Source: Escherichia coli O127:H6 str. E2348/69
GTDB taxonomy: Bacteria; Pseudomonadota; Gammaproteobacteria; Enterobacterales; Enterobacteriaceae
Assembly (NCBI RefSeq): GCF_000026545.1
Contig: NC_011601.1
DNA: 64,000 nucleotides
Reading direction: 5' to 3' (one strand)
The notes under the pieces are model-generated. The model ran no database searches. It was not told where the DNA came from and saw nothing but the letters and a program-made list of their open reading frames with translations. Shown piece by piece: positions 10,453 to 11,462 of this stretch; position 1 is the first letter of the stretch; each line of letters opens with the position of its first letter. A program made the position numbers and the translations under genes.

Positions 10453-10473
10453 AATGTCATAAATAATGGATTA

Positions 10474-10800
10474 TTGAACATGATAAAAATTGATGAAATA
10501 GATTTTTTTGCTTTCGAAGGATGTTCAGAGTCCGAAGTTACTGAACTATTAGGAAAAAAACAAACAGGTTATAATGATTGGATAATTAATATAAAAACAG
10601 GTGTGGAGTGGGTATTTTATGATGGTCGTTATTGGTTAGATTTTCGTAAATCCAAAGAGGGTATAAGGTGTATCTCATGCAGTATTCTGTATCACGATAA
10701 AAGTAAAGGGCGTATCGATGTCTTGTTTAGTGAAGGTATAGCTGACAGAGGTTTAAAAAATACGGGTGGAGTGTTAATCCAAAAACGCCCGCAATTATAA
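10474..10800 (+). CDS. Hypothetical small soluble protein (108 aa) in low-GC islet
   Basis: ORF in a roughly 35% GC segment; no recognisable motif; weak SD; W/Y-rich core WIINIKTGVEWVFYDGRYWLDF. Confidence 0.45.
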   Translation: MNMIKIDEIDFFAFEGCSESEVTELLGKKQTGYNDWIINIKTGVEWVFYDGRYWLDFRKSKEGIRCISCSILYHDKSKGRIDVLFSEGIADRGLKNTGGVLIQKRPQL

Positions 10801-10842
10801 TAATTCCTGGTAATATTTGTTTTCGTAAAAAGGATTTACTTT

Positions 10843-11292
10843 ATGCAACGTCAATATAAAAAATACATTCTTCTTTTTTGGGGGGGCATGGATGTTATCG
10901 CGATAGCCACATATCTGTTCTACTCGCTTGGTAATGATCGTATCCCTTTTTATTCCGATATCGTTCATTCACTTTCTTTACTTAAGGATATCGGTGTTGA
11001 AGGCGGTTTTTACGCTTATGCAGTCGCCACTGTTACGCTACAAATAGTATTATTGCTCTCTTTATTCTTTTCTGCGCAATGTTTTTTAAGACAAAAATTA
11101 TTTAGTTTCTCTTTTTTGGCGATTCAGGAAGTTATGCGTTTTGCTACCGTAAGCTGCTCAATCTCCGTAATACCGTTGTTACTTAATTATTTTCATTCAC
11201 AGAATCTGGTCTTAAATATTTCGTTGTTTATCTTCTCAGAGGTCACAAAAGTGACAACGATTATCTGGTGTAAACGACAGGGGAAAGTGTGA
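10843..11292 (+). CDS. Hypothetical membrane protein (149 aa, about 4 predicted TM helices) in low-GC islet
   Basis: ORF with SD aaagga 8 nt upstream; four hydrophobic stretches; T6G7 homopolymer in codons 11-15. Confidence 0.5.
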   Translation: MQRQYKKYILLFWGGMDVIAIATYLFYSLGNDRIPFYSDIVHSLSLLKDIGVEGGFYAYAVATVTLQIVLLLSLFFSAQCFLRQKLFSFSFLAIQEVMRFATVSCSISVIPLLLNYFHSQNLVLNISLFIFSEVTKVTTIIWCKRQGKV

Positions 11293-11462
11293 CAGAAATA
11301 GCAACAGATACAGGTGGATTTTTATATAAATGCCTTTTTAAATGCTTTCTTGTATAAATCTCTTATACTGAAAGTACATACAAGAGAAATGCCTGGATAA
11401 AAACAACGTGATTAGAAAAATCTTAACAGGAAAATGCATAACAAAAAGGAGAACCTGATTCC

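Follow-up and report, generated by a model that had tools for sequence, protein, structure and literature searches.

A membrane protein family linked to type VI secretion and a candidate orphan immunity gene between metH and yjbB of Escherichia coli E2348/69

Introduction

Evolved VgrG proteins of type VI secretion systems (T6SS) carry C-terminal toxin domains and are followed by a downstream immunity gene. The periplasm is where T6SS toxins arrive, and Sip6 is reportedly a membrane-embedded immunity protein for the membrane-targeting T6SS effector Ssp6. Immunity genes are also known as orphans, as in the acquired interbacterial defence (AID) systems of Bacteroidales and the orphan immunity arrays of Vibrio cholerae. 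PMC6899460 and PMC9620997 provide examples of evolved VgrG proteins, and PMC10763514 provides examples of orphan immunity in Enterobacter. For the Tle-Tli system of the Enterobacter cloacae T6SS-1, the N-domain of Tle has been proposed as the link to VgrG (Jensen et al., bioRxiv 10.1101/2023.03.28.534661). Here we analyse a stretch of 64,000 nucleotides (the window) that is 100% identical to the chromosome of enteropathogenic E. coli (EPEC) O127:H6 strain E2348/69. Between metH and yjbB it holds a low-GC islet with two open reading frames, ORF1 and ORF2. We consider it fairly likely, from the sequence and genomic context of its relatives, that ORF2 belongs, as an orphan immunity gene, to a T6SS effector-immunity family not characterised before.

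Results

ORF2 (10843..11292, plus strand; 149 aa, WP_001189558.1, PGAP annotation) is a 'hypothetical protein' in RefSeq/PGAP, as is ORF1, and has no significant match in Pfam, NCBIfam, PADLOC, PHROGs or PDB sequences. This agrees with a preliminary description of the locus, made from the DNA letters and open reading frames alone, which had recognised no motif in either protein. A word-indexed protein search gave Escherichia sequences only for both ORFs. An exhaustive HMMER search with ORF1 and ORF2 concatenated reached diverged relatives, yielding about 45 representatives of the ORF2 type that are 25–42% identical and 137–179 aa long, with one outlier of 257 aa. Contexts were collected in a species scan that used one genome per species and a 12-sequence alignment and sampled only homologues with FWGxMDx[IL][AS][IL]. 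It gave 25 species-level loci, all in Enterobacteriaceae (locus numbers below begin with L). At eight of the 25, and likewise in Franconibacter helveticus, the ORF2 homologue stands beside vgrG, PAAR or Rhs genes. At 13 loci the ORF2-family gene starts 4–26 bp before the stop codon of a gene for a toxin-like domain: eight are linked to yjbB (L025, L026, L035, L036, L038, L039, L040 and L045), two lie in T6SS clusters (L028 and L042), two have the domain fused to the VgrG C-terminus (L047 of E. coli KOEGE71 and L058 of Rahnella), and one is a short contig (L054) with the closest diverged ORF2 relative found (41% identity).

At the eight yjbB-linked and two T6SS-linked loci the partner is a gene for a 267–269 aa protein, with the precomputed Pfam label PF26362 (DUF8093), that ends 8–26 bp inside the start of the ORF2 homologue; L054 shows this arrangement too. 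The C-terminal ∼115 residues of this protein contain 18 invariant positions and the motifs GPGxW, NRxTSMGDEGR, RDKIQxW and GKSWxWxP. The same domain follows DUF2345 in VgrG fusions of E. coli KOEGE71, Rahnella aquatilis and Erwinia. In KOEGE71 and Rahnella there is a 4-bp overlap between the fusion and the gene after it, whose product matches the ORF2 profile with a probability of 99.9% (E = 5e-35 and 1.5e-34, respectively). The KOEGE71 vgrG-toxin gene (L047, 5191-7804) is split into ORFs of 524 and 267 aa, and the gene on Rahnella pMEM40-1 (L058, 1508-4390) has an in-frame stop just before the toxin domain. The N-terminal ∼140 residues of DUF8093 proteins match the N-domain of a 488-aa protein (hhalign 92%, E = 6e-7; BLASTP E = 3e-4), which occupies the same slot in E. 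cloacae and Citrobacter and has a GHSLGGG motif and a linker position consistent with Tle; the comparison was made with this Tle-like protein and not with ECL_01553 itself. The partner is thereby connected to T6SS delivery in three ways, through the VgrG/DUF2345 fusions, through neighbouring PAAR, Rhs and VgrG genes and through the Tle-type N-domain. Mean pairwise identity is 46% among the putative immunity proteins versus 69% for the toxin domain. A modular toxin on T6SS carriers, a membrane protein coupled to it, toxin-less copies and a faster-diverging partner together make up the standard signature of an effector-immunity pair. Nothing was found in the literature searched on PF26362, DUF8093 or the WP accessions.

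The gene orders in the T6SS clusters vary around the same core. L028 reads two pentapeptide-repeat proteins, DUF3540, Tox-PAAR-like, DUF8093, ORF2 homologue, DcrB (Eag-type) and PAAR-Rhs. L042 reads a 273-aa protein, DUF8093, ORF2 homologue and VgrG (TIGR03361, E = 3.5e-180), and the 273-aa protein, which has no NCBIfam match, looks like a T6SS-associated Ser/Thr kinase. In Citrobacter and Enterobacter loci L030, L031, L037 and L041, genes for the Tle-like protein, an ankyrin-like protein and the ORF2 homologue lie just upstream of vgrG with no DUF8093 gene, and these ORF2 homologues are orphan copies inside T6SS clusters; L032 has the same adjacency of ORF2 homologue and vgrG. At L023 (Enterobacter) a 3' remnant of the toxin gene of ∼88 codons (an 81-aa ORF) precedes an intact ORF2 homologue. 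In an unbootstrapped neighbour-joining tree the T6SS-linked copies form one clade and the yjbB-linked copies fall into genus-coherent groups. In F. helveticus (L018-L020) the ORF2 homologue belongs to a VgrG-PAAR array, a typical orphan toxin/immunity graveyard that also holds several small ORFs lacking annotation, an Ntox8/DUF2750 pair and C-terminal pieces of Rhs.

At these 13 loci the ORF2-type gene is found directly downstream of the toxin-like gene and overlapping it, the position of an immunity gene, although not in the window itself, where tblastn detected no similarity to the toxin at any point. ORF2 is classed as an orphan because the window has no toxin gene; at the limited sensitivity of blastn no cognate toxin was detected in the complete E. 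coli genomes either, and ORF2 is kept by selection, as described below.

ORF2 is predicted to be an inner-membrane protein with four transmembrane (TM) helices (about residues 8-28, 56-80, 90-114 and 122-142) and an N-in/C-in topology, based on hydropathy and the distribution of lysine and arginine, which bears out the approximately four helices of the preliminary description. Judged by the lysine/arginine distribution, both termini and the 81-89 loop are cytoplasmic. The acidic loop 29-55, which carries a conserved R-I-P-F-x-S-D sequence (R-I-P-F-x-x-D in the family), is predicted to be periplasmic. Residues W13, D17, R99, S106, E133 and K136 are invariant in the family. A four-TM immunity protein described with Min-Wnt toxins in a paper on the lipocone superfamily was followed as a lead, and no connection to the ORF2 family was made.

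We propose that the ∼115-aa toxin domain would be delivered either as the C-terminal half of a DUF8093 cargo effector, with the N-domain linking the effector to VgrG as proposed for Enterobacter Tle, or fused to the C-terminus of VgrG. The ORF2-family protein would neutralise the toxin on the periplasmic side of the inner membrane, probably via the conserved acidic loop, which the predicted topology puts in the periplasm, and the intramembrane polar residues. The neighbour-joining tree and the comparison of synonymous divergence suggest that such a module sat upstream of yjbB in the ancestor of several Enterobacteriaceae genera. Loss of the toxin would have followed more than once, in Escherichia, Phytobacter, Superficieibacter and C. 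amalonaticus, and in part in Enterobacter ENT03. Escherichia would have kept ORF2 without the toxin gene, under purifying selection in B2-type lineages, and most other E. coli would have replaced the whole block with a short spacer. Family membership, the order and overlap of the genes, the T6SS linkage, selection and the distribution in the population are observed; from them we infer an immunity function for ORF2 at the inner membrane and a present protective role in E. coli, in which the retained protein would guard against DUF8093-type toxins fired by competitors.

Several observations weigh against this proposal. Both VgrG fusions inspected are disrupted, and the downstream immunity gene is intact in both; the interruptions might reflect decay, readthrough or an artefact of sequencing. 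Neither a catalytic family nor a solved relative can be recognised for the toxin domain, and the label 'toxin' rests on architecture. Homologues that have a toxin partner share only 31-41% identity with the E. coli ORF2, which makes present-day cross-protection uncertain. The DUF8093 gene was not detected in the complete E. coli genomes by blastn, the sensitivity of which is limited for diverged genes, and the KOEGE71-type VgrG fusion is absent from all 5,426 of them, so the selective agent would be another genus. The AlphaFold2 models came from shallow alignments and were too poor for a test of the fold (pLDDT 38 and 43). The invariant charged residues inside TM helices could point to an enzymatic or transport function, and the position upstream of yjbB in 17 of the 25 species could reflect a functional tie to that gene.

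The invariant residues also suggest a variant of the immunity proposal that we regard as possible but doubtful. Since D17, R99, S106, E133 and K136 all sit in predicted TM helices, the ORF2 family might consist of small intramembrane enzymes or transport-like proteins that repair or mask the lipid-linked target of a T6SS toxin of a new class, with ORF1 as a second, cytoplasmic orphan immunity protein. Protection would then be broad and independent of the toxin allele, which would explain why B2 E. coli (ST131 and EPEC E2348/69 among them) keep a toxin-less gene, and the region upstream of yjbB would be a conserved miniature 'immunity hotspot' of the Enterobacteriaceae.

The islet might instead be a decaying relic with no current function, whose ORFs have simply not had the time to close. 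The toxin partner has gone, several lineages have ORF1 as a pseudogene or have it replaced, many truncated or frameshifted islet variants occur in metagenome assemblies, and the block is lost in most E. coli: the islet allele is present in 1,132 of 5,426 complete genomes at 95–100% identity, always on chromosomal records, the K-12 spacer allele in 4,293 (79%), and one genome falls in neither class. Among the strains that carry the islet are E2348/69, CE10, the type strain ATCC 11775 and one strain of O25b:H4-ST131, and the islet was not found on true plasmids. However, comparison with Escherichia whittamii shows that ORF2 is maintained. There are 39-44 synonymous versus 27-29 non-synonymous differences between the E. 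coli and E. whittamii genes, with a synonymous divergence (dS) of ∼0.6, a non-synonymous divergence (dN) of ∼0.083 and a dN/dS of 0.12-0.16. ORF2 is intact in every RefSeq allele inspected (E2348/69, GN25, CE10, ST2747, ATCC 11775, DA33135, E. whittamii and the fergusonii-like lineage L010), and 149 codons at 34% GC would not stay open for such a time by chance. ORF2 is a selected coding sequence that is maintained and not decaying, and decay of the islet as a whole is an unlikely account. Together with a dN/dS of 0.18-0.30 for ORF1 against L010, obtained from small counts, these values also remove the concern, raised at the outset, that the two ORFs might be chance reading frames.

The flanks give a measure of age. 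Between E. coli and E. whittamii their dS is 0.41 (metH) and 0.47 (yjbB) and their dN 0.007-0.009, so the ORF2 protein evolves ∼10 times faster than its neighbours at a similar dS. The ancestor shared by E. coli and E. whittamii probably had ORF2 already, and with homologues upstream of yjbB in at least seven named genera the locus is, judged by sequence comparison, old. ORF2 appears to have been inherited vertically over genus-level time and not recently acquired. The islet had been described as foreign-looking and of unclear origin; its composition is indeed foreign, but its position upstream of yjbB is not a recent one. Since yjbB-linked homologues are widespread and the dS of ORF2 matches that of the flanks, the K-12 state looks derived, and the K-12 allele looks like a later replacement of the older block. 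Some exchange has probably also occurred by homologous recombination. In a comparison of L010 with window positions 9420-12620 the islet and the metH 3' end are 90–95% identical to E2348/69; the islet itself is 92–95% identical while yjbB falls to 78–90%, and dS is 0.13 for ORF2 versus 0.97 for yjbB, values that suggest a breakpoint of recombination between species close to the yjbB start in L010.

By position the family is also associated with yjbB (11463..13094, plus strand, PGAP annotation), which encodes a protein of the Na/Pi cotransporter family. In 17 of the 25 species loci, from at least seven genera, the ORF2 homologue is directly upstream of yjbB on the same strand and 90–280 bp away; the sources are E. 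whittamii, Enterobacter, Kosakonia, Phytobacter, Superficieibacter, Pseudocitrobacter and Citrobacter amalonaticus. Identity of these homologues to the protein of E. coli is only 31–39%, apart from 85% in E. whittamii, and the flanking metH and yjbB are 90–95% identical. In Phytobacter massiliensis the adjacency to yjbB is kept even though metH is no longer adjacent, and terminator prediction gave none in the interval between ORF2 and yjbB of the window. ORF2 could accordingly be an accessory or regulatory membrane partner of YjbB, with the toxin association secondary. Against this, the 79% of complete E. coli genomes with the K-12 spacer have yjbB without ORF2, a whole clade of homologues resides in T6SS clusters away from any yjbB, the gene with which translation is coupled is the upstream toxin gene and never yjbB, and the tenfold faster evolution of ORF2 is unlike that of a subunit. 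We therefore think a role as YjbB partner quite unlikely.

ORF1 (10480..10800, plus strand; 106 aa from the PGAP ATG start, WP_000590026.1) would be 108 aa if a TTG at 10474 were used. The protein is soluble, has no signal peptide and contains three conserved cysteines (RCIxC motif) along with conserved Trp and Asp residues. It has no significant match in Pfam, NCBIfam, PADLOC, PHROGs or PDB sequences, and the exhaustive search found only three diverged representatives of its type. A relative in Serratia fonticola lies beside prophage baseplate genes, next to dapA. ORF1 was also considered as a relic of the DUF8093 toxin gene, and neither tblastn nor hhalign found any similarity.

The preliminary description had allowed for a two-gene system of a soluble and a membrane protein. 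ORF1 and ORF2 might on this view work as a self-contained unit, either a toxin-antitoxin, abortive infection or other anti-phage pair or a membrane effector plus its soluble chaperone. The two neighbours share a strand and a low-GC block, with 42 bp between them, and both are present in L010 and in one other lineage, L057, where their order recurs at ∼37–40% identity with 45 bp between them and ORF1 appears frameshifted; PADLOC also returned a weak match to '2TM effector' that is below significance (E = 0.065). The two genes nonetheless occur independently: ORF1 is found without ORF2 between metH and yjbB in L012-14, and ORF2 without ORF1 in L055/56, in E. whittamii and at another 11 species loci linked to yjbB. 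In place of ORF1, beside an intact ORF2, ∼290 bp of unrelated DNA are found in E. whittamii and a metagenomic lineage related to it. ORF1 is also frameshifted in DA33135 by two 1-bp deletions in A-runs (PGAP label 'frameshifted'), with ORF2 intact, and a match shorter by the same 2 bp was found in 14 of 29 full-length matches of an evenly spaced sample, the ST131 strain included, which makes ORF1 a pseudogene in a very common allele. The consistent partner of ORF2 in relatives is the DUF8093 toxin and not ORF1. Neither gene has a significant PADLOC or PHROG match or was found in phage or true plasmid records, and the anti-phage or abortive-infection function once suggested has no support. We judge the two-gene system very unlikely. 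ORF1 is a rare, dispensable cytoplasmic protein that shares the hotspot and is not obligately tied to ORF2; that it might be a second orphan immunity gene is only a guess, if a reasonable one. One stretch of the DNA replacing ORF1 (L006, 1537-1825; also L021) resembles a REP-type palindromic element by eye.

Small multi-TM inner-membrane proteins from low-GC DNA, of which ORF2 is one, resemble the immunity proteins of pore-forming colicins, but an origin as a remnant immunity gene against a pore-forming colicin or microcin is highly improbable, with no Pfam or NCBIfam colicin immunity match even at E = 10, no occurrence on true plasmids, and toxin-linked homologues that are tied to VgrG, PAAR or Rhs and not to colicin operons. 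An orphan toxin/immunity or bacteriocin-immunity remnant had been among the first suggestions for the islet, and of these we retain orphan immunity, for ORF2 only and with a T6SS toxin in place of a bacteriocin.

The gene order around the islet is aceK, iclR, metH, ORF1, ORF2, yjbB, IS1397, pepE and the sorbose operon. The left flank, metH (methionine synthase; 6737..10420, plus strand), was delimited by PGAP annotation and by BLAST and global alignment against K-12, and its last codons read ...GYDAE* in E2348/69 versus ...GYDAD* in K-12. The spacer from the metH end at 10420 to the yjbB start at 11463 is 1,042 bp long and contains both ORFs, as first described. The by-eye GC content of 35–38% was right in being far below the flanks and slightly too high: 10453-11462 has a GC of 0.338, the window as a whole 0.520, metH 0.555 and yjbB 0.550. 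In 1-kb windows (mean 0.520, s.d. 0.031) the islet kilobase is the minimum of the 64 kb at 0.347, the outcome of the windowed GC calculation that had been called for. Comparison of spacers, called for likewise, set the boundaries of the islet and showed that its ORFs also occur apart. Alignment against K-12 and population counts define an allele-specific block of 1,016 bp (10411..11426, GC 0.343), the counterpart of which in K-12 is an unrelated spacer of ∼185 bp by BLAST and global alignment. Homology to K-12 ends in the final two metH codons and restarts ∼35 bp 5' of the yjbB start codon. The locus is bi-allelic, with breakpoints inside core sequence.

Within the block, a terminator-like hairpin with a T-run lies 3' of metH (10429..10453, plus strand; the hairpin itself at 10429-10448, an 8-bp stem with six GC pairs). 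It is part of the islet allele and is kept in E. whittamii, L010 and GN25 by alignment. The 170-bp spacer between ORF2 and yjbB (11293..11462, plus strand) is AT-rich (GC 0.31), and its last ∼35 bp, from 11427, comprise the yjbB ribosome-binding site region and are homologous to K-12. No Rfam families were found in the spacer, and a promoter scan of the locus gave scores no better than those of shuffled sequence. No integrase, tRNA or terminal or flanking repeats were found at the block edges, in keeping with the original reading of the flanks as free of integrase and insertion sequence (IS) ends, and the islet does not qualify as a classical genomic island.

The IS element nearest to the islet is IS1397 (IS3-family, programmed frameshift) at 13180-14528, between yjbB and pepE. 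It is missing at the same position in K-12 and in the islet-bearing GN25 and is thus unrelated to the islet. An operon for L-sorbose phosphotransferase uptake and utilisation (regulator, short-chain dehydrogenase/reductase, IIA-IID and sorE; 15689-21402) lies between pepE and rluF, which are adjacent in K-12 and O104:H4, making it a further accessory segment of this region. A ccdA/ccdB toxin-antitoxin module occurs between yjbB and rluF in Phytobacter and a related metagenome-assembled genome (L015-L017, 8287-8786; L029, 10453-10940), and L012 has ccdA alone there (8307-8600). Small conflict genes thus have an insertion hotspot on either side of yjbB.

Elsewhere in the window a 92-aa hypothetical gene is annotated between psiE and yjbH (30897-31175), an ISEc13 transposase gene (IS4-like; 38764-40137) is inserted between malM and lamB of the maltose regulon, and qorA (NADPH:quinone reductase; 50672-51660) is annotated as frameshifted in E2348/69. 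At 54313-64000 an AAA-family ATPase gene and pnuC stand beside tyrB and are followed by an apparent second 2-oxoglutarate dehydrogenase/succinyl-CoA ligase cluster (E1, odhB, lpdA, sucC and sucD), an arrangement that we take to differ from that of K-12.

Discussion

The analysis supplies a testable function for two 'hypothetical' genes that are fixed in B2-type E. coli, lineages of medical importance (E2348/69, ST131, ATCC 11775), and absent from K-12-type strains. It also brings together a putative, uncharacterised T6SS toxin domain, the C-terminal half of DUF8093 that is also found fused to VgrG, with a candidate four-TM immunity family. The concept of orphan T6SS immunity is already well established, and what is new is the unnamed family. 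If ORF2 protects against T6SS attack by Enterobacter, Citrobacter or Kosakonia, it would be a small lineage-specific determinant of competition in the gut, and the membrane-proximal target of the toxin would be new biology.

The Tle-Tli system of E. cloacae (Jensen et al.) is related to the partner of the ORF2 family through delivery. DUF8093 proteins share the Tle-type N-domain of ∼140 aa and occupy the same slot upstream of vgrG (L042 versus L037 and L041), and in both cases a cargo effector gene is followed by an immunity gene. The toxins themselves are unrelated, as the DUF8093 toxin is no alpha/beta-hydrolase lipase and has no GxSxG motif, and the ORF2 family consists of four-TM membrane proteins whereas Tli is an ankyrin-repeat lipoprotein. 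At the Tle-type loci the ankyrin-like gene is followed by the ORF2 homologue as an additional gene that has no toxin. The Pfam family DUF8093 (PF26362), to which the toxin partner of the ORF2 homologues belongs, is itself absent from the window.

Evolved VgrG proteins have the same layout as the KOEGE71 and Rahnella genes, with a toxin domain after DUF2345 and an overlapping gene, here of the ORF2 family, and a toxin-domain fusion is also present in Erwinia. They differ in that the domain found here matches no described VgrG C-terminal activity, and the window has neither VgrG nor toxin. Orphan immunity genes and AID clusters resemble ORF2 in being toxin-less, under selection and variably present among strains. 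Unlike AID clusters, the ORF2 locus is a single gene (or two) at a conserved core site, with no integrase or array.

Sip6 and Ssp6 are not related to the present proteins in sequence. Unlike pore-forming helices, the toxin domain of DUF8093 is hydrophilic, and many of its conserved residues are charged or aromatic. Like Sip6-type proteins, however, ORF2 is predicted to be a small integral inner-membrane protein, and this likeness would imply a toxin acting at or in the inner membrane from the periplasmic side.

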